Below, one piece after another: positions 3,347 through 55,921 of a stretch of 64,000 bases of DNA (within the stretch, counting starts at the first letter, position 1; each line of letters opens with the position of its first letter). Below the pieces are notes generated by a model that ran no database searches, was not told where the DNA came from, and saw only the letters and a list, made by a program, of their open reading frames with translations. The DNA is from Escherichia coli (GTDB taxonomy: Bacteria; Pseudomonadota; Gammaproteobacteria; Enterobacterales; Enterobacteriaceae), in assembly GCA_022969815.1 (NCBI GenBank), contig GCA_022969815.1_4535.1; one strand, 5' to 3'. The position numbers and the translations under genes are program-made.

Positions 3347-4360
3347 ATGGGCGTGATTAAAGGTTGGGACATTCAGAAGAAAGAATGTGAAGAAGTGGCA
3401 AGACCAGGTATTACTGTTCTTGGATTTGTTGAACCGTGGAATGGTGCACATACTAAACTGATGCTGAAATGTGAGAAGCATGGAGAATGGAATACAACCT
3501 CCATCAACAACTTCAAAAAGAATGGTTCTGGTTGTAATGGTTGTCGAGCAGATATATGTGGTGCGAGAGCAGAAGGGAATAGTTTTGCAAGTAAAAATGC
3601 TATCTCAGATGAGCAACACATTAAGGATTTCTTGGCTACCGGATTGTTTGCAGAGGGGACGACTTTCGTAAACACAGGGGTGAAAACAAAAGCTAAGAAC
3701 GATTGTTTCTGGAAAGTAACTTGTCCTGTTTGTGCGGTAGACGAATACTCCAAAGCAGGATTAGGAGATGGATCTTTTGAAGCCAGAACTTCGCATATGA
3801 AACGGGGTCAAATCCCTTGTCGTTGCTCTCCTCGGCATATCTACTCTAAAGATCAGTGGATGTTTAGATTTCAGTTAATGTGTGAAGAAAAAGGTTATAC
3901 TTTTGTCAAGGCCATTTATGAAGGGGAAGCATACTCTCACGGAGATGTTGAATACACCTGTCCAGAACACGGCTCGCAACGCATGACTGTGAAGAACCTC
4001 ATGTCAGGTAAAGGTTGTCCAGAGTGTGCCAATAAAACGCAACAGTTCTGTTATATTAATGAAGTGTACGATGAAGATAATAATCTCTGTGCTCTTAAAT
4101 TTGGAATTGCCAATGATGCTGAACGTAGGATCAAAGGTCAGAATTCGAAGAATGCTTTCATAATGAAACAGAAAGTTGTCTACTTCTTTGATGATATCAA
4201 GTCGTGCCGAGCAGCGGAGAGGGAGTGTTTGAAGCTGTTGGAGTGCGGTGTTGTGAATAAATTTCAGTTGAAGGATGGACACACAGAAACAACACACCTT
4301 TCAAACTACACCAAGATTGTCGATATCTTTGAAGAATTTGGAGGGATGTTACAGAAATGA
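3347..4360 (+). CDS. zinc-ribbon repeat protein with C-terminal T5orf172/GIY-YIG-like segment; possible free-standing homing-endonuclease-like gene
   Basis: AAGGAGG RBS before ATG at 3347; three repeats of C-x-x-H-G...G-x-G-C-x-x-C; C-terminal LCALKFGIANDAERRIKGQ resembles GIY-YIG-like core; only plus-strand gene inside the minus-strand virion module. Confidence 0.4.
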   Translation: MGVIKGWDIQKKECEEVARPGITVLGFVEPWNGAHTKLMLKCEKHGEWNTTSINNFKKNGSGCNGCRADICGARAEGNSFASKNAISDEQHIKDFLATGLFAEGTTFVNTGVKTKAKNDCFWKVTCPVCAVDEYSKAGLGDGSFEARTSHMKRGQIPCRCSPRHIYSKDQWMFRFQLMCEEKGYTFVKAIYEGEAYSHGDVEYTCPEHGSQRMTVKNLMSGKGCPECANKTQQFCYINEVYDEDNNLCALKFGIANDAERRIKGQNSKNAFIMKQKVVYFFDDIKSCRAAERECLKLLECGVVNKFQLKDGHTETTHLSNYTKIVDIFEEFGGMLQK

Positions 4361-4388
4361 AAAAAGGGGCCGAAGCCCCTTTCTTTTA
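4361..4388. terminator. bidirectional rho-independent terminator
   Basis: AGGGGCCGAAGCCCCT hairpin flanked by A-run upstream and T-run downstream, between convergent genes. Confidence 0.6.
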
Positions 4389-5174
4389 GTTGCTGTTTGA
4401 CTGTCCACTTAACGTCTGCAAAGTCAGGCTCTGCATGAACGATTCAGAAGAAGCTTTAGCATTGAAATCAATGTAATCGGAAAGACGAGAAACATCACTT
4501 TGTAATGTCAAGGCAACTTCCGGTGTCAACGTAATGTTGAAGGTCGGGTTTGTCTGGTACTGCATAGCTTTAGATTGGAAATTCTGTGCGTCTTGACGAA
4601 TAGATTCTCCGGTAAACGTATAATTGTTTGCCGCAGATCCTGATCCATCTTTCTCAAAATATCCCACAACCTTATCCCAAATAGAAACACCTTCATCATT
4701 TTTGGAAGTGAGTCCATCTGAAACCGCCGCAAAAGGGTTAAAGGTTCTGTTCGCCATATCCCACACACTGGCATCTTTTCCTGTAGCTGCATAAATGAAA
4801 CCGAAGTTCTCGCGCATGAAGCTATCCAACCCTGTAAAGATGTTCAGGAACATGGTTGCAGTTTTGGCTGTGTTGACAGTTAACTTACCCATCTCTTCAC
4901 CCAAATCTTTCGCTACCTTATCCAACATTTTTACGTTGTCCAACCAGGACTCGTCTTTAGGTATTGCGTTCATAAATCCTTCCAGGAAATAGTTCTGCAT
5001 ACCTTGCCCGACCAAGCCTACCGTGGCAGTCAAGCGTGTGTACTCTTTAGAAGCTTCCATTTGCTCATTGGTCAACGCAGCACCAGTACGTTGAAGCATA
5101 CGGAGGGTTTCTTGGAAGCCTTCTCCGTTCTTGCTAAACATACGTTGGTAATGCATGAGGTCGTCACCAAGGTT
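4386..5174 (-). CDS. tail tape measure protein, exon 2 (3' exon; 5' boundary modelled)
   Basis: Reading frame of ORF 4386..5156 stays open upstream to about 5182; helix-rich sequence continuous in character with exon 1; modelled exon start at 5174 (NLGDDLMHYQ...). Confidence 0.5.
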   Translation of the reverse strand, partial: NLGDDLMHYQRMFSKNGEGFQETLRMLQRTGAALTNEQMEASKEYTRLTATVGLVGQGMQNYFLEGFMNAIPKDESWLDNVKMLDKVAKDLGEEMGKLTVNTAKTATMFLNIFTGLDSFMRENFGFIYAATGKDASVWDMANRTFNPFAAVSDGLTSKNDEGVSIWDKVVGYFEKDGSGSAANNYTFTGESIRQDAQNFQSKAMQYQTNPTFNITLTPEVALTLQSDVSRLSDYIDFNAKASSESFMQSLTLQTLSGQSNSN

Positions 5175-5529
5175 CTCAAGGCTTTGATTTTAAAGGAGTT
5201 TTTGTTAGTAACTCCCCCAGTTCTAACTTCGAACTGCTGCAACTTTCATTGCAGGAAAGACTATATCTTCATCTACGTGAGATGCTTCGCACTTCGCCCC
5301 ACTTGGGGCTACTCTACTCGCTTCCGTATCACTACGTGCTTTCGATAGTCGTTGAACTTTACTCTCGGTGAGAGTCTTAGCTGCTGATTACCCATTGTAC
5401 CATCTTGACAATTTTCAAGCATTCACGCCTGGCGTTGCCGCCTACGTTGTAGCTTGTCAAGCTTTAGGGAGTTCCAGCAATTCACGAAGTTTTCATTACC
5501 TTATCGCTAAGGTACGGCCCCTGTTAAGA
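5175..5529 (-). mobile_element. group I intron (ORF-less, subgroup IA-like) interrupting tape measure gene; boundaries approximate (+/-15 nt)
   Basis: Minus-strand RNA carries the conserved core elements in canonical order: P AAUUGCUGGAA (plus 5472-5482), Q AAUCAGCAGC (5380-5389), R GUUCAACGACUAUCGA (5342-5357), S AAGAUAUAGUCU (5258-5269), then P9-like hairpins; no ORF in the 355 nt. Confidence 0.7.
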
Positions 5530-6690
5530 AAGGCGACCAATCTGTGCCGAGTTCATGCCACGACGCTCACCTTCATTCACAGTTGCCTGTATGAAAGCTA
5601 ATGGATCGTTCTGCATGTGTTTAATTTGTGAAGGGTTCCAACCGAACATGTTCATGATATCGTTGATACCGTTATCACCCCCACGCCATTTTCCTTTTTT
5701 CTCATCCCATTCAGCAGCCATCATCGAGTTACCCAAACGTTCACGAACGTCTTTAAGGTTATCGATTGACTTAATAATGTTTGCCGAGTCAACACCGTTC
5801 TGTTCACCCCAAGCAGTCATTGTCATAATGGCGTTAGCGTTTGCCTGAACGTTCTCTGCACCACGACCTATGAACTTGATACGATCGTTAGCAGTTTGTA
5901 ACGTATTACCTACAACAGAACCACCTGCAAACAGTCCTGCACCAATCATGGATGAAACCATCATGCGAGGATTAAGGCCCAAAGCGCCATCTCTCATTTG
6001 CGAGTATTGACGATCTTTATCTCGGCGTTGCTGTGCCAGTTCACGTTTATGGTTACGCTCAATATCACGTAGCTCTTTATCACGCATACGCTGACGTTGT
6101 TTGGCTTCTGCTTCCAATTCACGACGAACTCGACGACGACCACGTACTTCATCTTCGATATCTTTTACTTTCTCTCGGTGAGATCGACGAAGATTATCAA
6201 GCTGGTGGGCCAGTGTCTGGTTCATACGTTGAAGAGTGATATCTCCACGTTTGTACGATTCTACAGAAGCATCCATGATTTGTTTGGCTTGGCGTTGCGC
6301 ATCTAAGGAAGCTTTGGTATACTGCATACCACGCTTTTCAAAGTTCTCCATACGGAGATTGCCTAAATCATTACGACGAGCCTGTAGCTCGGCAGCGCGT
6401 TCTTCTGGAGTTTTCTTTCCTGGTTTAGCTGGACGACCAGGACCGGAGGTAGTTCCACCACCTTTTGGAGTAGGAGGGGGAGCAGGGCGAGCAGGGAAAG
6501 TCTGCGCTTTACGCATTTCTCTTTCGATCTCTTTCATCTGCTGCCTAAACTTACTCATGTTTAAGGTGGGCTGTATTCTTTCAGCGAACTTTTTAACACT
6601 CTCTACAGAATCTTTGGCTTCTTTGAGACTGTTCTTGTCCACCTTAAATGTGACTACGTTACTGATTTTAGCCGCGTTTATATCTAACAA
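5530..6690 (-). CDS. tail tape measure protein, exon 1 (5' exon; 3' boundary modelled)
   Basis: TTG start at 6690 with GAGGA RBS; charged coiled-coil-like sequence with Pro/Gly-rich linker; unspliced frame hits a stop at 5524-5526 just inside the intron. Confidence 0.5.
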
Positions 6691-21568: not shown

Positions 21569-21647
21569 TGGAGGCGGGAATCGGATTCGAACCGATGATC
21601 TCCAGCATATGAAACTGGCGAGGACGACCAAACTCCTCTATCCCGCT
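21569..21647 (-). tRNA. tRNA-Met (anticodon CAU; Ile2 not excluded)
   Basis: T-arm ATCGG-TTCGAAT-CCGAT, anticodon loop UUCAUAU, encoded CCA; folded by eye. Confidence 0.55.
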
Positions 21648-21651
21648 ATTA

Positions 21652-21724
21652 GGTGTCCCGTGCTGGATTCGAACCAGCATCACAATAGTTGTGGATCTCT
21701 TATCCTGTAAGTCTAACGGGAAAC
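21652..21724 (-). tRNA. tRNA-like element, anticodon arm unresolved
   Basis: Canonical T-arm GCTGG-TTCGAAT-CCAGC and acceptor-like 3' end, but no canonical anticodon stem-loop found. Confidence 0.3.
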
Positions 21725-21798
21725 TGGTTGTTTCGACAAGAATCGAACTTGTATCTCACGATTATCAGTCGTGGGTTCTACCATTGAACTACGAAACA
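21725..21798 (-). tRNA. tRNA-Ile (anticodon GAU)
   Basis: Acceptor UGUUUCG/CGAAACA, D-arm GUUC-AAUGGUA-GAAC, anticodon loop CUGAUAA, T-arm, encoded CCA. Confidence 0.6.
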
Positions 21799-21821
21799 TT
21801 TAATTGGTAGGAATTGCAGGA

Positions 21822-22163
21822 TTACCAAGTAACATCATGCCCTGAATGGAAAGCGCAATGACAGTTCTTACAGAGTAAGACGCAATTCTCTATCTCTTTG
21901 TCTATTCTTGCAAGTGACCAGCCACGCATAGATCCGTAGTTCTTATCTTTTATTGCTGGGTCAAGATGGTGAATATCCAAAGATTCTTCATACTGATTAA
22001 ATCCGCAAGCGGCGCACTTACCTCCTAACTTATCACGAGCATATTTTTTCTTATGTTGTCCAAGTTCTGTCGTATACTTATTATGACAGGCTCCACAAAT
22101 AGATTTCTTATGTCCGTAGAATTTCGTAGGATCTTCTTCGCCACAATGACTGCATTTACACAT
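21822..22163 (-). CDS. HNH endonuclease
   Basis: 113 aa; Cys-rich MCKCSHCGEED...CGACHNKY...CKNCHCAFHSGH with zinc-finger/HNH spacing; embedded in tRNA cluster. Confidence 0.55.
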   Translation of the reverse strand: MCKCSHCGEEDPTKFYGHKKSICGACHNKYTTELGQHKKKYARDKLGGKCAACGFNQYEESLDIHHLDPAIKDKNYGSMRGWSLARIDKEIENCVLLCKNCHCAFHSGHDVTW

Positions 22164-22184
22164 ACAAAAAATCTCTTTACAAAT

Positions 22185-22260
22185 TGGTCAGCCTAAGAAG
22201 ACTTGAACTTCTAACCTCACCGCCCCAAACGGCGCACTCTTCCAATTGAGCTATAGGCTG
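22185..22260 (-). tRNA. tRNA-Pro (anticodon UGG)
   Basis: Acceptor CAGCCUA/UAGGCUG, anticodon stem CGCCG/CGGUG with loop UUUGGGG, T-loop UUCAAGU, encoded CCA. Confidence 0.6.
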
Positions 22261-22460
22261 TTAATAAAAAATCTCACGTCTTATACAAGCTAACCTTTTG
22301 CCTGATGCATGAAATTTAAATACATTCTAAAGGTACACCGTAAAAGATTGTCGGGGCGATACTTCAAAAACATACCGATCCGTAGATCGATAATCAGACA
22401 AACTTCGACGGCTCCTCGTTTTTAACTTCACACTTAAGGTAGTGACTCACCTTTGTTATA

Positions 22461-22536
22461 TGGCTGGTCTGTCTGGATTTGAACCAAACCTACGACAGTC
22501 AAAGTGTCGTGTGCTACCGGACTACAATACAAACCA
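22461..22536 (-). tRNA. tRNA-Gln (anticodon UUG)
   Basis: Starts with U1-A72 pair as in bacterial tRNA-Gln; anticodon stem CGACA/UGUCG, loop CUUUGAC; T-loop UUCAAAU; encoded CCA. Confidence 0.6.
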
Positions 22537-22626
22537 TTTAATGAAGGGCAACCAGAAGAGGTGTGAGAGAAGGAGAAAACCATGAGTAAAAGAGAAAGTT
22601 TTCTGGCAACCCTTTATTAAATAATT

Positions 22627-22700
22627 TGGAGCGTTCTACGAGTTTCGAACTCGTGCCGCCGACTTGGAAGGACGGAATGCTACCGCTACACCAAGAACGC
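22627..22700 (-). tRNA. tRNA-Gly (anticodon UCC)
   Basis: Acceptor GCGUUCU/AGAACGC, anticodon loop CUUCCAA, T-arm ACGAG-UUCGAAA-CUCGU, encoded CCA. Confidence 0.55.
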
Positions 22701-22929
22701 CCTACATCTTTACTATACTACATTTTACTATCAGTTGTCAATAGTTTTATTGGGCGGGACAGTGACGAGTATCCCATTGGGTGACTAACCCTACGTTCGG
22801 TTGTGATTAATCTCCTGGGTGTCGCTTGCAACACTGGAAAACTCTCACGTCGATGGGAGAATCCGCTTCTTCTTTACCCCATCCAACCCTACTCCGGTCA
22901 AGTTTCAGGTGACTCTTTTTGTGATCAAC

Positions 22930-23260
22930 ACAATACTAAGAACACTGTCTTTCGAGCAGACCTTGTGCACAGGATACGACGATCAATCACAGTGCTCTTA
23001 ATGTTGTGCCACAATAATAAGAACATTCAAACGATGACCACTTTTAGTGGAGAGATTTACAAAATGCTCTTAATGTTGTGTTGTGAATACTAACCTCGGA
23101 ACTCATTACCGCGCTTTGGCTCGACCTTATTACAGGTTAGTGAATGTCTTTCGTCCGATTACATTCAATAAATTTGCTTTCTTCACAACGATAAGAACAC
23201 TTAACAGAAGATAGGTCTGATTGCCTCGGATGATTTCTCAGTAGCCTAAATGTTCTTACC
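22930..23260. repeat. repeat-containing spacer within tRNA cluster (TAAGAACA motif x4, 15-bp direct repeat x2)
   Basis: TAAGAACA at 22937, 23018, 23192 and inverted at 23251; GCTCTTAATGTTGTG at 22994-23008 and 23066-23080. Confidence 0.45.
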
Positions 23261-23268
23261 TGTTATGT

Positions 23269-23344
23269 TGGTGCTCCAAGTAGGACTCGAACCTACGACC
23301 TCATGCTTACAAGGCAAGTGCTCTACCAACTGAGCTATTGAAGC
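23269..23344 (-). tRNA. tRNA-Thr (anticodon UGU)
   Basis: Acceptor GCUUCAA/UUGGAGC, D-arm AGCUCAGUUGGUAGAGC, anticodon loop CUUGUAA, T-arm GUAGG-UUCGAGU-CCUAC, encoded CCA. Confidence 0.6.
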
Positions 23345-23696
23345 GTATTGCGCCCCTTCAGCCATGCTTGATGTTGACCAGAACACAGTTAAACTGTGGG
23401 AGGAGGAACACCGCAGGGGGCTTCAGTTGGACGACTTACAGGGAGCGACCCTGTTTCTTTTCTGGGACTCGGCAGGATTCGATACCTGCAATTCCAGAAG
23501 CCTCTTGGCAACTGAGGGTTTACCTTAACCCTACAAGTCCATAATTCTTAAATACTTTGGAGCCTTACTGATAAACCGTTAGTTTGTAACATAGCGTATT
23601 TCCATTCTGGGGCACCGCCTGTGAATGTAATTCCAATACAAACTTTCTCAAGATCAAACCAATTATCAAATAACATTACAACCTCCAGTTTGAATT

Positions 23697-23780
23697 TGGT
23701 GTGAGATGATGGATTCGAACCACCGCGCCTTTCAGAAGGGATTTACAGTCCCCCGCAATCGACCACTCTGCCAATCTCAC
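23697..23780 (-). tRNA. tRNA-Tyr (anticodon GUA)
   Basis: Acceptor GUGAGAU/AUCUCAC, anticodon loop CUGUAAA, long variable arm, T-arm GGUGG-UUCGAAU-CCAUC, encoded CCA. Confidence 0.6.
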
Positions 23781-23904
23781 AAAATTGTTTTTAAAGTAGC
23801 CAGTATTCGCGGTACTGACTATGCGGTATCGGAGATGGTGAGAGCCATCTGCCGAAAGTTTACTCTGTTAAAGTAAGAAACAACAAGCTACATTAAAAAC
23901 AACT

Positions 23905-23990
23905 TGGCGGTAGATGTAGGACTCGAACCTACACGCCGTTTCCGACTACAGTTTAGCAAACTGTTGTGGCTACCATTTCACCAATCTACC
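23905..23990 (-). tRNA. tRNA-Ser (anticodon GCU)
   Basis: Acceptor GGUAGAU/AUCUACC, anticodon stem ACAGU/ACUGU with loop UUGCUAA, long variable arm, encoded CCA. Confidence 0.6.
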
Positions 23991-23996
23991 TAAATT

Positions 23997-24086
23997 TGGA
24001 GGAAGGTAATGGAGTCGAACCATCACCGTATCTCTACAATGGGCCAGGGTTCAAATCTGGTTGCGTACCACTACGCCCTACCTTCC
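23997..24086 (-). tRNA. tRNA-Ser (anticodon UGA; long variable arm, Leu not excluded)
   Basis: Acceptor GGAAGGU/ACCUUCC, anticodon loop UUUGAAC with one stem mismatch, long variable arm, T-loop UUCGACU, encoded CCA. Confidence 0.5.
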
Positions 24087-24321
24087 ATACATTTAATCTA
24101 ACATAAAACGATGTTGATTGTCAACACCTTTTAAAACATTTTATTATGAATGGTGACTCCACCAACCCCCGTTCTCCACGAACGGTACTCTTCGAGCAAT
24201 CTACCCTTGCAATCAAACGTTGTACACCGTTAGCTTACTCATGCATATTTGCCTCATTCTCTGCCAACCATGATCAGTGGTAGGGTTCAAATCACTTGAG
24301 CTAATTCATACTAAAATGTTC

Positions 24322-24396
24322 TGGTGTCTTTACAAGGAATCGAACCTTGACTAAGAGTTTAGAAGACTCCTGTGCTATCCATTACACCATAAAGAC
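24322..24396 (-). tRNA. tRNA-Arg (anticodon UCU)
   Basis: Acceptor GUCUUUA/UAAAGAC, anticodon stem GGAGU/ACUCU with loop CUUCUAA, T-loop UUCGAUU, encoded CCA. Confidence 0.6.
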
Positions 24397-24398
24397 GT

Positions 24399-24473
24399 TG
24401 GTGGCCCTGACTGGTTTCGATCCAGTTGCCTATCGGTTATGAGCCGACTGCTCTCCCATTGAGCTACAGGGCC
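24399..24473 (-). tRNA. tRNA-Met (anticodon CAU; elongator or Ile2-type)
   Basis: Acceptor GGCCCUG/CAGGGCC with G1-C72, D-arm AGCUCAAUGGGAGAGC, anticodon loop CUCAUAA, encoded CCA. Confidence 0.6.
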
Positions 24474-45490: not shown

Positions 45491-46479
45491 GATACCTGGT
45501 AACAGGTGGTCTTGGTTTCATTGGGAGCGCCGTAGTGCGCTCTCTTTGTCAAGATCCTAATAACGAAGTTTTTGTTATTGATAAAATGGGCTACGCAGCC
45601 GATATTGAAAATGTAGGGGATATCACTCACGCCAAACTAAGTATGACAGATTTGGCAAACGAAGCACAGGTCAAAAGTTTAGTGGTAGAATGCAACCCTG
45701 ATTTCATCATTCATTTAGCGGCAGAGAGTCATGTGGACAACTCTATCAAGAATCCACGAGCTTTCATCGACTCCAATATCATCGGTACATATAATCTGTT
45801 AGAAGCTGCAAGGCTTCTTCCTAAGAACAAGCTGAAGATGTTTGTACACGTCTCTACAGACGAAGTGTACGGTGATATGGAGGACTCTGGTGCTCCATTT
45901 ACCGAAGAGACAGCTTATGCTCCTTCAAGCCCATACAGCGCGTCTAAGGCGGCATCTGATCACCTTGTCAAAGCTTGGCACCGTACTTACGATTTGCCTG
46001 TAGTGATAACCAACTGTTCCAATAACTTTGGGCCTTACCAACACCCTGAAAAATTGATTCCGAAAGTGATCACGAACATCTTGACAAGCAAAGAAATTCC
46101 AGTGTACGGTAAAGGCGATCAAGTAAGAGATTGGCTTTTTGTTGAGGACCATGCGCGAGCTATTCTTCAAGTAGCTTCTGGCGGCGAACCTGGACAAACT
46201 TACAACGTAGGCACACGTAATCCTAAAACCAATATGGAGATCATCTATATGATTTGTGATTACATGGATGCCGTACACCCGCAAAGTGGAACCTACCCGT
46301 CTTCGAGTTTAATAACTTTTGTTGAAGATCGTAAAGGACATGACTTGCATTATGAAATCAACCCTGCTAAGATTGAATCTGAACTGGGTTGGAGTGCAAA
46401 CTCCACATTTGAACAAGACCTTTACTCTACGATAGAGTGGTATTTAAACAACCCTCAATGGTGGAGAGAAAAGATTTAA
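45487..46479 (+). CDS. rmlB: dTDP-glucose 4,6-dehydratase
   Basis: N-terminal [10 protein letters not shown] Rossmann motif, YSASK catalytic motif; 330 aa. Confidence 0.8.
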
Positions 46480-46487
46480 GGAGGGTT

Positions 46488-47366
46488 ATGAAAGGTATTA
46501 TTTTGGCGGGAGGAAGTGGAACCCGCCTACACCCTGTAACACGCAGTGTGAGCAAGCAATTGCTCCCTGTGTATGACAAACCTATGATTTATTATCCTTT
46601 ATCAGTCTTGATGTTGGCAGATATTAAGGATATCTTAATCATCACAACCCCAGGCGATCAGGAAGATTTTGAGTATCTTCTTGGAGATGGATCTATGTTT
46701 GGGATAAAAATCACTTACGCAATGCAGTCTGAACCACGAGGTCTTGCAGATGCTTTCATCATCGGTAAAGATTTTATTGAGGAAGATTCCGTTGCCCTTA
46801 TTTTAGGGGATAACTTGTTCTTCGGACAAAGTTTCGGAAAACTTCTTATCCAAGCCAGCGAAATGGTGGATGTTTGGGGTGGAGCTTGTATCTTCGGGTA
46901 TCTGGTGAAAGATCCTGAACGATTCGGTGTTGTTGAGTTCGGAAGTAATCGCCAAGCTATCTCTATTGAAGAGAAACCGGAACATCCTAAATCAGACTAT
47001 GCCGTCACGGGTTTGTATTTCTATGACAACTCTGTTGTTCAACGTGCATTGGAAGTAACTCCTTCTGATCGTGGAGAACTGGAGATCACAGATATCAATC
47101 GCAGCTACCTCGAAGACAGAAAGTTACAAGTTGAAGTTCTTGGAAGAGGATTCACTTGGCTGGATACAGGGACACACGCCAGTCTAATGGAAGCAGGTCA
47201 ATTCGTGCAGACTATTGAGAACTGCCAAGGATTGAAGATTGCGTGCCTGGAAGAGATTGCTTTCAAAAAAGGGTGGATTTCTTTAGAGACTTTGGTGTAT
47301 CATGGCAACTCATTGAAGAAAACAGAGTACGGGCAATATCTGTTAAAATTAGCGGAGGGTAAATGA
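46488..47366 (+). CDS. rmlA: glucose-1-phosphate thymidylyltransferase
   Basis: N-terminal [16 protein letters not shown] signature; AAGGAGGG RBS before ATG at 46488; 292 aa. Confidence 0.85.
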
Positions 47367-47923
47367 AAATAAAAGAATTAAGTATTCCTGGTCTGGTTGT
47401 CTTTAAACCTCAAGTTTACAAAGATGATCGTGGTTCCTTCACGGAGACGTTTAACGAGAAGATTTACGAAGAGGTTATTGGCAAACAAACGTTTGTTCAG
47501 GATAACCATTCATTCTCTACTTTAGGTGTTCTTCGCGGAATGCACTTTCAAGTAAATAACCCGCAAGGTAAGCTTGTACGTTGCACACGAGGTGAAGTTT
47601 TTGACGTGGCTGTAGATCTTCGTGAAGGTAGTCCAACCTTCGGACAATGGGAAGGTGTGATTCTTAGTGGGTGTAACAATAAACAGTTGTGGATTCCACC
47701 TGGCTTTGCACATGGTTTTGTTGTAACCTCTTATGAAGCCAACTTTGAATACAAGTGCACCAACTACTACGATCCGGCATCTGAACGTAGTTTGTTGTGG
47801 AACGATCCTACTGTGAATATTGATTGGGGTTTTGATATGATTTTCAATGATGAGAATTTTGTACCTATCATTTCGGAAAAGGATGCACAAGCTAAAACAC
47901 TGAAGGAGCTTATGGAATCATGA
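47363..47923 (+). CDS. rmlC: dTDP-4-dehydrorhamnose 3,5-epimerase
   Basis: 186 aa cupin-like with GMHFQ and IPPGFAHGF motifs. Confidence 0.75.
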
Positions 47924-48762
47924 AAACATATTTAGTATTGGGTGGTAATGGTCAATTAGGTCAGGCACTGCGTAAAGTGGTGCCGGAGAATGTGACTTTG
48001 GTGTATCCAGAAAAGCGTGTAGATATCACCAGTTTTGAAGCTGTAAGAAAAGCGATCATGGACACCCCAAATATTAACGGTGTTATCAACTGTGCGGCAT
48101 ACACTGCGGTGGACAAAGCAGAGACAGATGTTGATGCAGCTATGGCTGTAAATTTACACGGGGCAGCTAATATTGCTGCCTTCTGTAAGGCTTGGGATAT
48201 TGACATGGTGCATATTTCTACTGACTATGTGTTCAACAGCGATAAACCGTTGTTCCATCAGGATGAACCCAACCCTATCAATGTTTACGGGTTATCTAAA
48301 AGTTTGGGTGAAGCTGCTGTTCGTGGTATCTACCATAAAGCTTTTATTATCCGCACGGCTTCTGTGTATAGCGAGTTTGGTAACAACTTCCTGAAGACTA
48401 TGGTATCTCGTTACAACGATGGTCAAAGAGACTTCTCGGTAGTTGCAGATCAAACATCTCGACCAACTTATGCCCCAGATTTGGCTAAGATGATTTTCCA
48501 AGTGTTGGAAACAGGATATAACACCCGTACTTTGCATTACGCTGGGAACATCACTGTTTCGTGGCACCAGTTCGCAAAAATGATATTGACACGTATGCCT
48601 GAATCTGTTATTATACACCCGACCTCTGCTGCAACCTATAATTCGGCAGCGATGCGACCAGCAAAGTCTATACTAATTACGTCTGGTTGGAACGAACCTT
48701 CAAGCGTCAGACAAGGTATTGAAGAATCTTTAGCAGTATTACTTAATAAGGAGAGAGCATGA
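47920..48762 (+). CDS. rmlD: dTDP-4-dehydrorhamnose reductase
   Basis: N-terminal LVLGGNGQLGQAL Rossmann motif; 280 aa; last gene of the four-gene rml block. Confidence 0.75.
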   Translation: MKTYLVLGGNGQLGQALRKVVPENVTLVYPEKRVDITSFEAVRKAIMDTPNINGVINCAAYTAVDKAETDVDAAMAVNLHGAANIAAFCKAWDIDMVHISTDYVFNSDKPLFHQDEPNPINVYGLSKSLGEAAVRGIYHKAFIIRTASVYSEFGNNFLKTMVSRYNDGQRDFSVVADQTSRPTYAPDLAKMIFQVLETGYNTRTLHYAGNITVSWHQFAKMILTRMPESVIIHPTSAATYNSAAMRPAKSILITSGWNEPSSVRQGIEESLAVLLNKERA

Positions 48763-49019
48763 ATTTTGTAATTTACGGCAAACCAAATTGCCAGTTCTGT
48801 GAAATGTCCAAACAACTCTTAACTATGCGTGAAAAAGAGTTTGAATATCTGACATTAGATCAGGATTATGATTTTGAAGTGATGACTCAAGCAGTGATCG
48901 CAGCAACAGGAATTGCACCTCGCACCTTCCCGCAGATTTTTGTGGAAGAGCTTGGAGCAGTAACCCACGTAGGCGGTTTTACCGAACTGCGTGATTTCAT
49001 GGCTCAAATTGCGGAGTAA
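48759..49019 (+). CDS. glutaredoxin-like protein (NrdH-like)
   Basis: 86 aa with CQFC redox motif near N-terminus. Confidence 0.65.
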   Translation: MNFVIYGKPNCQFCEMSKQLLTMREKEFEYLTLDQDYDFEVMTQAVIAATGIAPRTFPQIFVEELGAVTHVGGFTELRDFMAQIAE

Positions 49020-49182: not shown

Positions 49183-49686
49183 ATGGCTAAAAAAGTAGTA
49201 GATGAGTTTGACATGTTGGCTGTTGATGAAGGACTGAAGCTGACTGTTTACCCAGACACCTTGGGATATTGGACAGTCGGCATTGGACACCTCTTAACTA
49301 AAAAGAAAGATAAGGCGGAAGCTATTCGTATTCTGGATGCTCTTGTTGGTCGCAAGACTAACGGAGTTATCACAGAGAAAGAAGCCCGTGCTATCTTTGC
49401 TGACGATGTTGAAAAGGCGAAAAAACAGATTAAAAACAGTTCCATTCTTGCCCCAATTTATGATAAGGTGAGTGAAACCCGTAAACTGGCAATCATCAAT
49501 ATGGTGTTCCAGTTGGGGTTAACCGGAACGGAAGGCTTTAAAAATAGCTTGACTTTAATCAGTAATTCGTACTATACTCAAGCTGGTAAAAACATGAGAG
49601 CCAGTAAATGGTACTCTCAAACGCCAAACCGTGCAGAACGAGTAATCAAGGTTCTAACATCTGGGACTCTTGATTCTTACAACTAA
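49183..49686 (+). CDS. endolysin, T4 lysozyme family (GH24)
   Basis: DEGLKLTVYPDTLGYWTVGIGHLL and later blocks closely parallel T4 gene e lysozyme along the full 167 aa. Confidence 0.9.
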   Translation: MAKKVVDEFDMLAVDEGLKLTVYPDTLGYWTVGIGHLLTKKKDKAEAIRILDALVGRKTNGVITEKEARAIFADDVEKAKKQIKNSSILAPIYDKVSETRKLAIINMVFQLGLTGTEGFKNSLTLISNSYYTQAGKNMRASKWYSQTPNRAERVIKVLTSGTLDSYN

Positions 49687-49687
49687 C

Positions 49688-49710
49688 AAAGGGGCGCAAG
49701 CCCCTTCTAT
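49688..49710 (+). terminator. putative rho-independent terminator
   Basis: GGGGCGCAAGCCCC hairpin with short T tract. Confidence 0.4.
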
Positions 49711-49723
49711 AAGGAGTGCTACT

Positions 49724-50479
49724 ATGGGAAAAACAGCTACCGCTAAATCACCGCGCCAGAAGTTAGCTTCTAATGCGAAAGTAGAAAGTCGTTATGCTGC
49801 AAAAGCAGTTGGAAATGATGACTATCGTTTAGATGGGTTTTCACCAGAAGGAGATCAGCAACAAATCGTTCAAAGTATGATCTGGAATGATCTTACAGTC
49901 GTAAATGCTCCAGCAGGGACAGGCAAGACTTCCGTGACTTTATGGAAAGCTTTGCAGATGCTTCGAGCAGGAGATTTCCGTAAGCTTCTTTTTATTAAAA
50001 ACCCGACTGAAGTTGGTGATGATCAGATTGGTTTCCTTTCAGGAGATAAAACTGATAAACTGGCGGCGCACTACGAATCAACCAAACGAATCTTCCAGCA
50101 GTTTATGACTGCAAACAAATTAGAGAATGATATTGGTTCCGGTAAGATTGAACTTAATATCCCGAACTACCTACTGGGTGCTACCCTGGACAACACTATC
50201 GTGATCATTGATGAAGCACAGCTTATGTCTCCAGAAACATTAAAACTTCTGGTAGAGCGTGCAGGGATCAACACTCATGTTGTTGTTCTTGGAGATGTTC
50301 GTCAAACCTACGCTATCAAAAAGCGTGCAAACGGTTTGAAAGATCTTCTTGACAAAGTTGCCCCTGAAGGTGAAGATGGTGTTCGTGTCCCTCTGGTAGA
50401 CTTTATCGGTTATGTGCAGTTAACCACAGATGACAACAAACGATCTCGTTTGTCTAAGTTCATCACGGAAATTTATTAA
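49724..50479 (+). CDS. phoH: PhoH-like ATPase
   Basis: Walker A NAPAGTGKT and Walker B-like IVIIDEAQ; AAGGAG RBS before ATG at 49724. Confidence 0.75.
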   Translation: MGKTATAKSPRQKLASNAKVESRYAAKAVGNDDYRLDGFSPEGDQQQIVQSMIWNDLTVVNAPAGTGKTSVTLWKALQMLRAGDFRKLLFIKNPTEVGDDQIGFLSGDKTDKLAAHYESTKRIFQQFMTANKLENDIGSGKIELNIPNYLLGATLDNTIVIIDEAQLMSPETLKLLVERAGINTHVVVLGDVRQTYAIKKRANGLKDLLDKVAPEGEDGVRVPLVDFIGYVQLTTDDNKRSRLSKFITEIY

Positions 50480-50517: not shown

Positions 50518-51015
50518 ATGGTACAGACAATTATAGATCGGACTGGTATTGATGAATGTTACCAAACTGGGCTTGTGAAGCCTAACGAGTTCCGACAGAT
50601 TTGCGTGAATCATATTGAGAAAGAAATTGCACTAACTTTGGAGAACCTTACCCTCCGAGACAAGCTGTCAATGTTTGTGGCTTGGTGTAAAGGTGAAGAT
50701 TGGTTATTGGCCCATTTTCAAGAACTTTCTGATAGTCAAGAAGGCTTATATGAATGTATAATAGGAATAGCTGGCTCCAATCCTGAACTTCTCCATTTGG
50801 AAGAAGAAGAGGCGAAGTTACTGTTCTTAAGCAACATGTTCAATCGTAAAGCATTGCTTGTTCGTGAGTGTAGTGATCTTTTAAATCATCCACTGGCGAT
50901 CACAAACGAAATACTGGTTGACAAAGAGACATTACGTGCGATAGACTATCTGCGCAAGTATGTCAACGGCGGGAAAGCAGTTCTTAAAACATTAACAGAG
51001 GAGGAAGCAGAATGA
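50518..51015 (+). CDS. hypothetical protein
   Basis: GGAGGG RBS. Confidence 0.5.
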   Translation: MVQTIIDRTGIDECYQTGLVKPNEFRQICVNHIEKEIALTLENLTLRDKLSMFVAWCKGEDWLLAHFQELSDSQEGLYECIIGIAGSNPELLHLEEEEAKLLFLSNMFNRKALLVRECSDLLNHPLAITNEILVDKETLRAIDYLRKYVNGGKAVLKTLTEEEAE

Positions 51016-51698
51016 CTACAATTATCGCAACCAAAAACAAGATCCTTAGCGACGGTAAAGTAACTTTCGGTGGTCGTGTAGATTCGACCAATTTCAAGAA
51101 AGTACGTAAAATTGGGGATTATCTCGTAGGTGGTGCAGGGCGTTTAACTTCGGTTTTAGCTTTCTTCCAGTGGTTCGAACAGAACCTGCAATGTGAAGCG
51201 GCGCGTGAGGCAGTGCCTGGATTGATGATCAGTTCTAACCCTGATCGTGAAGATGAAGAGTTTATTGCTCTCGTTGTTCACCCAGACGGACGTATTTTCC
51301 TACATGAAGGTAATGATCCTACCCGTGCATACCCAATCGACGAAGAATATTACGCAGTAGGTAGTGGTTCCGATTTCGCGCTCGCAGCCCTGGACGGCGG
51401 TGCTTCGCCAGAAGCTGCTATGGAAGTTGCCAAGAAGCGTGACGCATACTCTGGTGGCGAAACCTTCGTTGAAGAATTAGACGAGATCATCGAACTGACT
51501 GATGAAGATCTCGAAAACTTCACCAAACAAGAACTGATCAACCTGCTTAAGTTTGGTAATCCTGCTGGTGAAGAAACTCCTCGTGACGTGGCAGGTGACG
51601 AGACGGTAGAAGAAGTTGTAGTAGAAAAAGACTTGACTTCAAAACCGGAAAATATTAATCTCGTAAATGTAGCGGATTTCGAGAATCCCGCTTCTTAA
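51012..51698 (+). CDS. HslV/proteasome beta-like Ntn-hydrolase with acidic C-terminal extension, putative
   Basis: Thr at position 2 (MTTIIATKN...), GGAGR and YYAVGSGSDFALAALDGG blocks parallel HslV; about 60-aa acidic tail. Confidence 0.45.
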   Translation: MTTIIATKNKILSDGKVTFGGRVDSTNFKKVRKIGDYLVGGAGRLTSVLAFFQWFEQNLQCEAAREAVPGLMISSNPDREDEEFIALVVHPDGRIFLHEGNDPTRAYPIDEEYYAVGSGSDFALAALDGGASPEAAMEVAKKRDAYSGGETFVEELDEIIELTDEDLENFTKQELINLLKFGNPAGEETPRDVAGDETVEEVVVEKDLTSKPENINLVNVADFENPAS

Positions 51699-51704
51699 TA
51701 AAAC

Positions 51705-51730
51705 TGCCCCTTCGGGGGCATTTCTTACGC
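51705..51730 (+). terminator. putative rho-independent terminator
   Basis: GCCCCTTCGGGGGC hairpin followed by T-containing tract. Confidence 0.4.
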
Positions 51731-53188: not shown

Positions 53189-53380
53189 ATGCAAGAGAAT
53201 GAAGAGGTAGTTGTTAAAAAGTTCCCGACACGTACACAGGCAGTCAACTTTGCTTCTGATTTGCTTGTAGATGTGGAAGGAGTTCTCATTAGACATGAAG
53301 GGGATTCCTGGAATGTCTCTTATAACGTAAACAGATCAATTATCTATTTAGGAGAAGAGAACTTCTCTCGTATAGATTGA
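53189..53380 (+). CDS. hypothetical protein
   Basis: AAGGAGG RBS. Confidence 0.5.
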   Translation: MQENEEVVVKKFPTRTQAVNFASDLLVDVEGVLIRHEGDSWNVSYNVNRSIIYLGEENFSRID

Positions 53381-53394
53381 TCGAAGGAGTAGTT

Positions 53395-53967
53395 ATGCGT
53401 TCTACTTACACAGGTAAGATTAATTCTGGTATCATTTTAGCAGCAGCAGGAATCATCAGCAAAACTTTCAAAGTGGCAAACCTACCAGAGTGTGTAGATT
53501 TTGACCACGTATTCAATCCGTTAAATCCTTCTCGTTGTGTTGTTCGTAGCAATGTTGAGAATCCAAACGAGAACTTGTTTTATGTAACAGCACCTTCACA
53601 AAGTATTCTGAACCAAGTGGAGGCTAAAATTATTACCGAAGGTAGTTATTTCTCATTACTACCTTGTAAATCGGTGGAGATTGAAGATAGTATCACCTTC
53701 GCAAATAACTTGGTCTTGACCATGTTCATGGTTTCTGATAAAGACTGTGGAGACGATATGGTTTTAGCTGTAAGGAATGTTTACGACACATTGGGTATTG
53801 CTTATAGCTGTAAGTTGTGCGATGATTATAAATCTTGTTCAGACTTTTACATAAATGGTGTTCGGGTATGCCGTGTTGAATCCTACTGGGTGCAAGACAC
53901 ATACGTAACAGTAGCGAACGTGATCAATGAACCTATGTTCAGCCACGCTTTAGCGTTAATCATTTGA
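53395..53967 (+). CDS. hypothetical Cys-rich protein
   Basis: GAAGGAG RBS before ATG at 53395. Confidence 0.45.
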   Translation: MRSTYTGKINSGIILAAAGIISKTFKVANLPECVDFDHVFNPLNPSRCVVRSNVENPNENLFYVTAPSQSILNQVEAKIITEGSYFSLLPCKSVEIEDSITFANNLVLTMFMVSDKDCGDDMVLAVRNVYDTLGIAYSCKLCDDYKSCSDFYINGVRVCRVESYWVQDTYVTVANVINEPMFSHALALII

Positions 53968-55041: not shown

Positions 55042-55334
55042 TGTATAAAATTACAATCGTAGAATCTGTGGGCGAGATTCGTAAAGAAATTATTCTGGAG
55101 ACGGAAGATCTGGAACTGGTACGTGAAATCATAATTGGGAAGGATGTAGATAAGGTTGAGTCGGACGCTCCGAATCTGATGATCGATGATCAATATGCAG
55201 AATTTCGTCGTATTTTTGAGGAGGAAAGGAAGAAGTGGGGCAAAGAACCACACGTTTTTCGTCCTTATAATCCATATCCTTCTGGTGATCCGTGGATCAT
55301 GACTAACAGAAACCCGTTTGAAATAACCTGTTGA
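55041..55334 (+). CDS. hypothetical protein
   Basis: AGGAGG RBS. Confidence 0.5.
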   Translation: MYKITIVESVGEIRKEIILETEDLELVREIIIGKDVDKVESDAPNLMIDDQYAEFRRIFEEERKKWGKEPHVFRPYNPYPSGDPWIMTNRNPFEITC

Positions 55335-55342
55335 GGTGGCCT

Positions 55343-55921
55343 ATGAGCAACCTATTTTACACAGGTGTGGGAAGTCGAGAGATAACCCACGAAGAATGGG
55401 ATTTAATGGTCGCTGTAGCAAAGTGGTTGGCTAACTGTGGTTTTACTTTACGTTCAGGTAATGCAAACGGTAGTGACTCTGCTTTCGAAACTGGTGTAGA
55501 AGAATCTAAAAACAAAACTCTCAAGGAGATTTATATCCCTTGGGAGAAGTTTGAAGGCAATGATATCCCAGGTGAGAAGATAGTGCTTGCTAATCCTGAC
55601 AGTATGAACTATGCTATCAGTCTCCAGTGGATAAAGGAAATCCATCCAGCATTTGATAAACTTAAACAAGGTGCACGTAAATTGCATCAACGCAACGTTC
55701 ATCAGGTGTTGGGACAAGATCTGGAGCATCCCGTGCCTTCCTTATTCTTATTGGCATGTTCCAAAGAGGATAAGAAGGGAGATGTTATGGGCGGAACAAG
55801 GACGGCGTGGCTCATCGCTAAAGCTAATAACGTTCCATGTTTTAACTTACGTGGTAAAACAAAGGAAGAACTTTATGCTTTTCTTAAACCGTTGGTCAAG
55901 GGGGCAATCAGTGGCAATTAA
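55343..55921 (+). CDS. DprA/SLOG-family Rossmann-fold protein, putative
   Basis: YTGVGSRE and LRSGNANGSDSAFETG resemble DprA/Smf blocks; ATG at 55343. Confidence 0.35.
   Translation: MSNLFYTGVGSREITHEEWDLMVAVAKWLANCGFTLRSGNANGSDSAFETGVEESKNKTLKEIYIPWEKFEGNDIPGEKIVLANPDSMNYAISLQWIKEIHPAFDKLKQGARKLHQRNVHQVLGQDLEHPVPSLFLLACSKEDKKGDVMGGTRTAWLIAKANNVPCFNLRGKTKEELYAFLKPLVKGAISGN

Follow-up and report, generated by a model that had tools for sequence, protein, structure and literature searches.

Proteasome-type peptidases normally depend on an unfoldase ring. In HslV (ClpQ), residues R86, R89 and K90 protrude at the pore entrance, and point mutations of these residues severely reduce activity (PMC5777263); helix H2 supplies A79/K80 to the pocket for the HslU tail (PMC6429459). 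BPH, a descendant of HslV, has no unfoldase as a partner, its pore loop is elongated and acidic, and HslU was not pulled down with it (PMC5777263). A catalogue of new proteasome homologues, compiled by bioinformatics only, termed a phage proteasome homologue "the first true viral member" (Fuchs, Alva & Lupas, 2021, Bioinformatics; PMC8665760). According to this catalogue, PPH and RPC are proteasome homologues without helix H2; PPH comprises approximately 140 residues, RPC carries a C-terminal extension and was reported only from proteobacterial genomes, AAH is likewise present in phages, and the proteasome-like superfamily includes the ligase connectase, which lacks H1 and H2 (PMC8665760). Orphan HslV genes receive brief mentions, at the level of annotation, in papers on phage genomes. 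In this study, we consider such a gene at positions 51012-51698 (+ strand) of a stretch of 64,000 nucleotides, hereafter the window, which is deposited under Escherichia coli (GenBank assembly GCA_022969815.1, contig GCA_022969815.1_4535.1).

Our analysis supports the identity that a first-pass annotation, made from the sequence without database searches, had proposed for this gene, namely a phage-encoded HslV/proteasome-beta-like protein that ends in an acidic tail. The product is a small threonine peptidase of the proteasome/HslV type without a partner ATPase. As a gene, it is not new. Its orthologue is already annotated in close relatives as "peptidase HslV family", "HslV family peptidase", "ATP-dependent protease subunit" or "putative 20S proteasome" (phAPEC8 gp175 and phi92 gene 058 are examples), and the family has been published. 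With regard to how the protein works, we lean, with moderate confidence, towards a self-contained N-terminal nucleophile (Ntn) peptidase that would act independently of HslU, with a predicted acidic pore, a C-terminal helix that is conserved and a tail that is disordered and acidic, and that would be encoded in an accessory cassette with PhoH.

Family, fold and active site

The open reading frame (ORF) starts with ATG and comprises 228 codons for a protein of 228 aa, and a Shine-Dalgarno sequence, GAGGAGG, lies at 50998-51004, 7 nt 5′ of the start. The translation begins exactly as had been read at first, with MTTIIATKN and a Thr straight after the Met, and it contains the GGAGR block (residues 40-44) and the YYAVGSGSDFALAALDGG block (residues 112-129) that were proposed to parallel HslV. 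The acidic extension, previously put at approximately 60 residues, corresponds to residues 157-228, a stretch of 72 aa with 20 Asp/Glu against 5 Lys/Arg. The family profile search that the first-pass annotation had named as a check assigned the protein to PHROG 1040, "peptidase HslV family" (E = 1.3e-58; residues 1-210 against profile positions 14-224 of 277), and to Pfam Proteasome PF00227 at 25.5 bits, above the gathering score of 22.4 (E = 1.2e-5), over residues 11-63 only. When the single protein was compared with the sequences of the PDB using phmmer, the best matches were all HslV (T. maritima HslV, E = 1e-8). With a profile built from 56 members of the family, HslV in the PDB was matched at 1e-15 to 1e-10 (best 1.2e-15), beta5 subunits at approximately 3e-8 and BPH (5ovu) at 4.2e-6. 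The NCBIfam HslV equivalogs (TIGR03692 and PRK05456) were not reached, with scores of 30.9 bits for a cut-off of 157.75 and of 32.3 bits for a cut-off of 137. The observed similarity to HslV and the proteasome is well past chance.

An AlphaFold2 (AF2) model built on the alignment of the 56 family members has an overall mean predicted local distance difference test (pLDDT) value of 82. Its core mostly exceeds 90, and the means of the 10-residue blocks up to residue 160 are all at least 87, except for a mean of 75 at residues 71-80. The modelled helices span residues 45-67, 120-128 and 133-143, in addition to helices in the tail. A Foldseek search with this model returned a probability of 1.00 and target-normalised template modelling (TM) scores of 0.56-0.69 to HslV, BPH and beta subunits; the top PDB matches were the HslV proteins of S. 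aureus, B. anthracis, B. subtilis and T. maritima, followed by BPH and by archaeal and eukaryotic beta subunits. The HslV/proteasome fold, on which the initial proposal had been made to depend, is therefore recovered in a high-confidence predicted core, and the model has the alpha-beta-beta-alpha sandwich of the proteasome-like Ntn hydrolase superfamily. By homology, the protein would probably assemble into a ring-shaped homo-oligomer with its active sites inside.

The conservation of the active site was assessed among 226 relatives gathered from two large protein libraries, of which 141 are long forms (at least 176 aa). In the alignment to E. coli HslV, Thr2 corresponds to Thr1, Asp14 to Asp17, Lys30 to Lys33 and Gly117-Ser118-Gly119 to Gly123-Ser124-Gly125. 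The codon of Thr2, the predicted N-terminal nucleophile, lies at 51015-51017 (+ strand), and the Thr is invariant in two alignments and is kept in 136/136 long forms with a residue aligned at that column. Approximately 200 of the 226 relatives start with MT[TVI] and a few start with MS, and most of the others look truncated or mis-started; the conservation of the N-terminal Thr, which had been named as a point on which the proposal could fall, is thus well documented. The stretch at 51051-51101 (+ strand) carries Asp14 (51051-51053) and Lys30 (51099-51101), the equivalents of Asp17 and Lys33 of HslV and the proteasome, and these residues are conserved in 138 and 139 of the 141 long forms, respectively. 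The Gly-Ser-Gly active-site loop, at 51360-51368 (+ strand), is conserved in 134 and Asp144 in 136. At the level of sequence and predicted fold, the active site composed of Thr2, Asp14, Lys30 and Gly117-Ser118-Gly119 is complete and is predicted to be catalytically competent. When Thr directly follows Met, as in E. coli HslV, methionine aminopeptidase is expected to expose the nucleophile, and no propeptide processing should be required. Met1 of the phage protein would accordingly be removed by the methionine aminopeptidase of the host, leaving Thr2 as the nucleophile.

Among the described families, HslV is the best match in both sequence and fold, and the likeness extends to the Met-Thr-Thr start, Asp17, Lys33, Gly-Ser-Gly and the end of the core (...VEEL vs ...IEEL). 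However, the phage protein has no cognate HslU, falls below the equivalog cut-offs, has a coil in place of H2, REDEEF in place of RMLRKL and Ser in place of K28, and is also shortened by 3 residues in the first hairpin and by 9 residues after the GSG helix, and extended by a tail of 72 residues. The 20S proteasome beta subunit (PF00227) shares the fold and the predicted mechanism, and its Pfam gathering score is passed, although the phage protein lacks both a propeptide and an alpha-ring partner, has a smaller core, and matches the Pfam model only in the segment given above. With PPH and RPC, the protein has in common a compact HslV-derived core, the Thr1/Asp17/Lys33 triad, the lack of a propeptide, the absence of H2 from the model and, as regards this group, its encoding by a phage; it further resembles RPC in having a C-terminal extension without a known fold. 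It differs from PPH in length (a core of 156 residues plus a tail of 72, 228 aa in total, vs approximately 140 residues) and from RPC in origin, since RPC comes from proteobacterial chromosomes and the present gene from a phage. These likenesses were judged from the published descriptions of the group, whose representatives are WP_042125023.1 (PPH) and WP_140207863 (RPC). As judged from sequence and model, the protein belongs to a phage-specific branch, that of PHROG 1040 and the PPH/RPC-like group of Fuchs et al. (2021). BPH (PDB 5ovs/5ovt/5ovu) shares the acidic pore loop, the kinship with HslV and the absence of an unfoldase partner, and ranks 4th to 8th in Foldseek; however, its profile match is far weaker than that of HslV (4.2e-6 vs 1.2e-15), and it is a chromosomal bacterial protein of stress operons that forms heptameric rings. 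The acidic loop seems to be a convergent feature, and the resemblance to BPH is one of possible working and not of membership.

The HslU-facing side and the C-terminal region

In the AF2 model, the long helix 45-67 is followed by a 17-residue coil at residues 68-84 (VPGLMISSNPDREDEEF; 51213-51263, + strand), which contains Pro/Gly and lies where E. coli HslV (AVELAKDWRTDRMLRKL in the alignment) has H2 and a short pore loop. The coil includes the equivalent of the pore motif: R86-M-L-R-K-L91 of HslV is aligned with R79-E-D-E-E-F84, and the columns of R86, R89 and K90 are occupied by R79, E82 and E83. The acidic residues of the segment are D78, E80, D81, E82 and E83, and they bring its net charge to -4; the mean is -4.4 across the 141 long forms, compared with +2 in E. 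coli HslV. In the long forms, D81, E82 and E/D83 are strongly conserved, and F84 occurs in 131/141. This predicted acidic pore segment (REDEEF vs RMLRKL) is, as far as we have found, a previously undescribed property of the phage family. The column of E. coli HslV K28 holds Ser, Gln, Asp or Asn, with Lys in only 4/141 long forms and Ser in this protein; the contact of Lys28 with the C-terminal carboxylate of HslU, which we take to occur in E. coli HslV, is used here as a minor argument only.

The first-pass annotation had noted that no HslU-like gene adjoins the peptidase, and a tblastn search with E. coli HslU extends this observation, with nothing at E<10 in the whole window or in the complete phAPEC8 genome. 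A phage-encoded HslU was on this basis rejected as a partner. We found no earlier description of this absence of HslU from the window and the whole phAPEC8 genome. The HslU-like genes of phages, among the matches listed, belong mainly to Erwinia and Salmonella jumbo phages or to bacterial contaminant and unrelated records. Because H2 is replaced by a coil in the model, the basic pore residues are now Asp/Glu, the K28 column holds Ser/Gln and the phage has no HslU, we favour HslU-independent action as most likely, although these sequence and model features do not prove it; the peptidase would most likely act without HslU as BPH and PPH do.

Several points weigh against this reading. The loss of H2 is derived from a predicted structure, and the pLDDT of that loop is only 75-87. 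The AF2 model is a monomer, which bears on both the oligomer and the placement of the C-terminal helix. The residues of the HslU pocket are partly retained, with F57 of E. coli HslV represented by F52, and F54 by Leu. Our literature search found no biochemical, genetic or other experimental study of a phage HslV/PPH member. Finally, every host known for long-form phages (Escherichia, Klebsiella, Vibrio, Aeromonas and Shewanella) has HslU.

This last point leads to the alternative that survives best, in which the phage dodecamer docks onto E. coli HslU hexamers to form a hybrid ATP-dependent protease with an altered pore, specificity or regulation. Such a capture of the host unfoldase would fit the position of HslV as the nearest solved family in sequence and fold, the lack of a phage unfoldase near the gene, the occurrence of HslUV in the hosts of all long-form phages, and the retention of pocket-equivalent aromatic residues, namely F52 and the nearly invariant F51/W54. 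However, H2, the source of A79/K80 in the HslU-tail pocket (PMC6429459), is predicted to be absent, and the acidic-pore precedent BPH did not pull down HslU (PMC5777263). The scores against the NCBIfam HslV equivalogs are far under the cut-offs (in round numbers, 32 vs 137 and 31 vs 158). The now acidic R86/R89/K90 positions and the unconserved K28 column also count against it; taken together, the changed HslU-facing parts weigh weakly in this direction. On balance, we regard the use of host HslU as unlikely.

The region following the core offers a second difference from HslV. The core ends at ...TFVEEL156, which is aligned to the C-terminus of E. coli HslV (...TIEEL), and residues 163-181 (TDEDLENFTKQELINLLKF; 51498-51554, + strand) form a conserved helical motif according to the AF2 helices and the column conservation. 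The model places helices at 164-169 and 172-181, with block pLDDT values of 82 (161-170) and 87 (171-180). For residues 163-179, the motif reads [ST]-x-[ED]-x-[LA]-x-x-[FML]-[ST]-[KR]-E-[QE]-L-[LI]-x-[LMI]-[LI], with conserved columns at T/S163, E165, L167, S/T171, K/R172, E173, L175, L/I176 and L/I179, and it can be traced in relatives of Escherichia, Aeromonas, Vibrio and metagenomic origin at only 31-36% identity. Residues 182-228 (51555-51695, + strand) constitute a variable acidic tail that is predicted to be disordered (pLDDT <50 at 190-219) and has 12 D/E vs 3 K/R in residues 185-228. In the long forms, the tails past the motif vary from 15 to 218 residues, are non-alignable and predicted to be disordered, and mostly carry a net charge of -5 to -31; a Pfam search of ten long-tailed homologues returned no significant domain in the tails. 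Minimal forms of 134-160 aa lack both the helix motif and the tail and keep the active site. The acidic tail is consequently a conserved property of one clade and holds a conserved structured element, and we are not aware of an earlier description of a conserved helix motif at 163-181 ahead of a disordered acidic tail. The amphipathic helix and the tail would probably together constitute an interaction or gating element. The segment TDEDLENF (163-170) resembles the C-terminus of HslU (...DEDLSRFIL), and the residues concerned are only partly conserved.

Four metagenomic long forms of 280-379 aa (P0061, P0062, P0064 and P0066) have a further C-terminal region of 100-200 residues with no Pfam match. 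All four end in a Trp-rich sequence, and P0061, P0062 and P0064 contain at least one CxxC pair in this region, which is possibly a substrate- or partner-binding domain.

The PhoH cassette and the distribution of the gene

The window is 99% identical to the Escherichia phages phiWec188 and phiWec190, 97% to the record of "Pseudomonas phage PsgM04F" and approximately 77% to phAPEC8 and other Phapecoctavirus genomes, and it is collinear, in reverse orientation, with the stretch of phAPEC8 between approximately 80 kb and 22.8 kb. Because of these identities and this collinearity, the window is that of a Stephanstirmvirinae-type E. coli myovirus. The peptidase gene lies in a co-directional block in the order ribonucleotide reductase, thymidylate synthase, dTDP-rhamnose enzymes, glutaredoxin, T4-type lysozyme, PhoH, a 165-aa gene and the peptidase, with methyltransferases and a metallophosphatase on its 3′ side. 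As first reported, its neighbours are PhoH and a protein of 165 aa. The gene for the PhoH-like P-loop NTPase (PF02562, E = 2e-36; phrog_170) occupies 49724-50479 (+ strand), with the start taken from the 756-nt annotation of PsgM04F, and is the first gene of the conserved cassette. The 165-aa gene (phrog_14834) occupies 50518-51015 (+ strand), and its stop overlaps the ATG of the peptidase (ATGA, 51012-51015), an overlap that suggests translational coupling of the two genes. A GC-rich hairpin with an 8-bp stem lies just 5′ of PhoH (49688-49707, no strand assigned), and a second one (TGCCCC-TTCG-GGGGCA), with a T-rich run, lies 7 nt past the peptidase stop (51705-51720, + strand). Both emerged from a scan for terminator-like elements, and the region holds no more such hairpins than are expected from shuffled sequence. 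This arrangement suggests that PhoH, the 165-aa gene and the peptidase may form a discrete three-gene transcription unit with its 3′ end at the 51705-51720 hairpin. Within the nucleotide-metabolism block, the peptidase shares one co-directional cassette with PhoH and the orphan 165-aa protein, and its function would be an accessory one.

The 165-aa protein is modelled by AF2 at a pLDDT of 91 and is mostly helical. It has no Pfam or NCBIfam match and no significant fold match in the PDB (best E = 0.1, TM<0.3), and BFVD returned only phage orphans. The gene accompanies the peptidase only down to approximately 47-49% peptidase identity (L008-L026), and its fold appears to be an orphan that is restricted to these phages. 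A 147-aa protein upstream of the Aeromonas homologue was considered as a relative and rejected (hhalign probability of 0.6%).

The linkage to PhoH was surveyed in 80 IMG/VR loci, annotated phage records and metagenomic contigs. Of the 29 long-form loci with sufficient flanking sequence, 28 have PhoH at approximately 3 kb or less from the peptidase (the linked loci are L002, L003, L008-L026, L028, L089/L090, L091 and L094). It is directly beside the peptidase in L089/L090 and L091, and in L028, whose wider genome context also differs, it is located on the downstream side and is separated from the peptidase by two short ORFs. In L027, whose peptidase is 36% identical, neither the 10 kb upstream nor the 4 kb downstream contains PhoH. 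None of the 59 minimal-form loci has PhoH in its available flanks, and clustering of neighbours over 61 loci revealed no recurrent partner of the minimal forms, only heterogeneous phage genes (terminase-like, HNH, metallophosphatase and primase). This linkage in the long-form loci has, to the extent of our search, not been described. Because the wider order of ribonucleotide reductase, glutaredoxin, lysozyme, PhoH and peptidase is also conserved, inherited synteny is sufficient to account for the adjacency, and functional coupling is possible.

Functional coupling would be the basis of a second alternative, in which the PhoH-like NTPase is the nucleotide-dependent partner of the peptidase, with the 165-aa protein as a possible adaptor and helix 163-181 as the docking element. 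The near-constant linkage just described would agree with this proposal, as would the lack of PhoH from the loci of the minimal forms, which are also without the helix motif, the hairpins that bracket the cassette, and a single deletion in phage VEcB, discussed below, that inactivates all three genes. However, the adjacency may be no more than inherited synteny, PhoH occurs in very many phages that have no such peptidase, and L027 lacks PhoH in the flanks searched. Moreover, we know of no PhoH-like protein that is a protein unfoldase, which also counts against this proposal. We therefore consider a protease coupled to PhoH distinctly improbable.

The same neighbourhood contains several mobile elements. 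In L091, the PhoH gene (4084-5946) encodes a protein of 620 aa with an intein (Hom_end_hint/LAGLIDADG), the large subunit of ribonucleotide reductase in another metagenomic relative also carries an intein (L094, 1-2278), and in Vibrio phage 501E54-1, a gene for an AP2-type homing endonuclease is located between PhoH and the peptidase (L003, 4080-4727). The PhoH/peptidase cassette seems to attract selfish elements.

Homologues of the peptidase were found in 194 phage records from Escherichia, Klebsiella, Vibrio, Aeromonas, Shewanella, Rhizobium, Caulobacter and other hosts, and at 98 confirmed loci in IMG/VR. A phmmer search with the query also returned many phage proteins of 134-160 aa, with E of 1e-10 to 1e-13. 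Among 185,579 species genomes, only 10 weak or fragmentary loci were detected; bacterial chromosomes are practically devoid of the long-form clade, which is essentially restricted to phages.

A natural loss of the gene is found in phage VEcB (NC_052663.1, approximately 21585-21962), where the N-terminal half of PhoH and the peptidase from residue 63 onward are fused in one ORF, P0069. The in-frame deletion removes the C-terminal half of PhoH, the whole 165-aa gene and the Thr1/Asp/Lys region of the peptidase, and the fusion junction lies at a shared Ala-Ala (...KLAA|QETIPGL). Because VEcB is a viable phage that has lost the cassette, the cassette is not essential for propagation. We have come across no earlier report of the loss of the peptidase in VEcB.

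Two further assignments were considered and rejected. A role as the head-maturation protease is ruled against by the separate Peptidase_S78_2 (XkdF-like) gene that phAPEC8 carries beside its portal gene, and by the site of the HslV-like gene, which lies in the nucleotide-metabolism block on the opposite strand. The phAPEC8 protein gp014, a classical AAA ATPase (PF00004) that is nearest in the PDB to Rix7 and AFG2, was examined as a partner; its gene lies outside the window, its family is present in 395 phage records, and there is no specific link. The hosts of that family include Enterococcus, Bacillus, Staphylococcus and Lactococcus, and its members include crAss-like phages, all of which are groups absent from the HslV-like matches.

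Some additional features of these genomes were recorded. In phAPEC8, positions 139005-140144 of NC_020079.1 (L007 39005-40144) encode a classical AAA-clade ATPase of 379 aa (PF00004; nearest in the PDB, Rix7 and AFG2), and the next gene is annotated as an "endonuclease"; this ATPase, from a family spread over 395 records of unrelated phages and encoded outside the window, is probably not a partner of the peptidase. The AAA protein of ABPW7 is 99.7% identical to its phAPEC8 counterpart. The records OR584014.1, MG065650.1, MG065689.1 and OP562383.1 are named as Pseudomonas, Campylobacter or Acinetobacter phages, and these host labels look doubtful, the records being collinear here with E. coli Stephanstirmvirinae phages or having identical proteins. 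In the window, the dTDP-rhamnose genes (46437-48762, + strand) encode an RmlA-like nucleotidyltransferase, an RmlC epimerase and an RmlD reductase and are followed by the glutaredoxin gene (48759-49019) and the T4-type lysozyme gene (49183-49686). Eleven tRNA genes (Met x2, Ile, Pro, Gln, Gly, Thr, Tyr, Ser x2 and Arg) at 21569-24473 (- strand) match the tRNA block of phAPEC8. The genes at 53377-53967 (+ strand) and 55331-55921 (+ strand) are called "histidyl tRNA synthetase" and "DprA-like", respectively, in relatives; they have no Pfam match at E<=0.001, and these names look weak.

Other roles and the meaning of an orphan phage peptidase

An Ntn enzyme in a metabolic rather than proteostatic neighbourhood could perform a chemistry other than degradation, for example as a site-specific processing protease, a connectase-like transpeptidase or ligase, or a small-molecule amidohydrolase. 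The superfamily does include the ligase connectase (PMC8665760), and BPH is inactive on standard protease substrates (PMC5777263). However, the active-site constellation and the fold are those of HslV and the beta subunits, unlike those of connectase with its missing H1/H2, and nothing points specifically to another substrate. We give a non-degradative chemistry little credence. A passive decoy or inhibitor that titrates host HslU, or another host factor through the acidic tail, with catalysis irrelevant, would suit the conserved acidic and disordered tail (mostly net -5 to -31), which recalls some phage mimic proteins, and the lack of an evident partner gene, but it is the least probable alternative, since Thr, Asp, Lys and GSG are strictly kept across sequences only 30-40% identical, a constraint for which a decoy has no use, and the tail-less minimal forms (134-160 aa) also keep the active site.

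We also note a more speculative pair of ideas, to which we attach a very small likelihood: that a PhoH-dependent phage protease exists, in which PhoH would dock onto the peptidase ring through helix 163-181, optionally with an adaptor, or that TDEDLENF may serve as an activator in cis in the absence of HslU. If the former were true, it would provide the first defined function for the enigmatic and very widespread phage PhoH. If the latter were true, the peptidase would have a built-in activator and would be constitutively active without HslU.

Under the explanation that we favour, a self-contained peptidase acting without HslU, a lytic phage that carries only the peptidase raises the questions of what feeds it and what is degraded during infection. 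The targets could be host regulators or defence proteins, or the enzyme could serve in peptide recycling. To these questions our analysis adds a set of testable features, namely the acidic pore, the missing H2, the tail helix, the PhoH linkage and the natural loss in VEcB. Because phi92 and phAPEC8 (Stephanstirmvirinae) grow on ordinary E. coli, the function of this phage peptidase is open to direct experiment.

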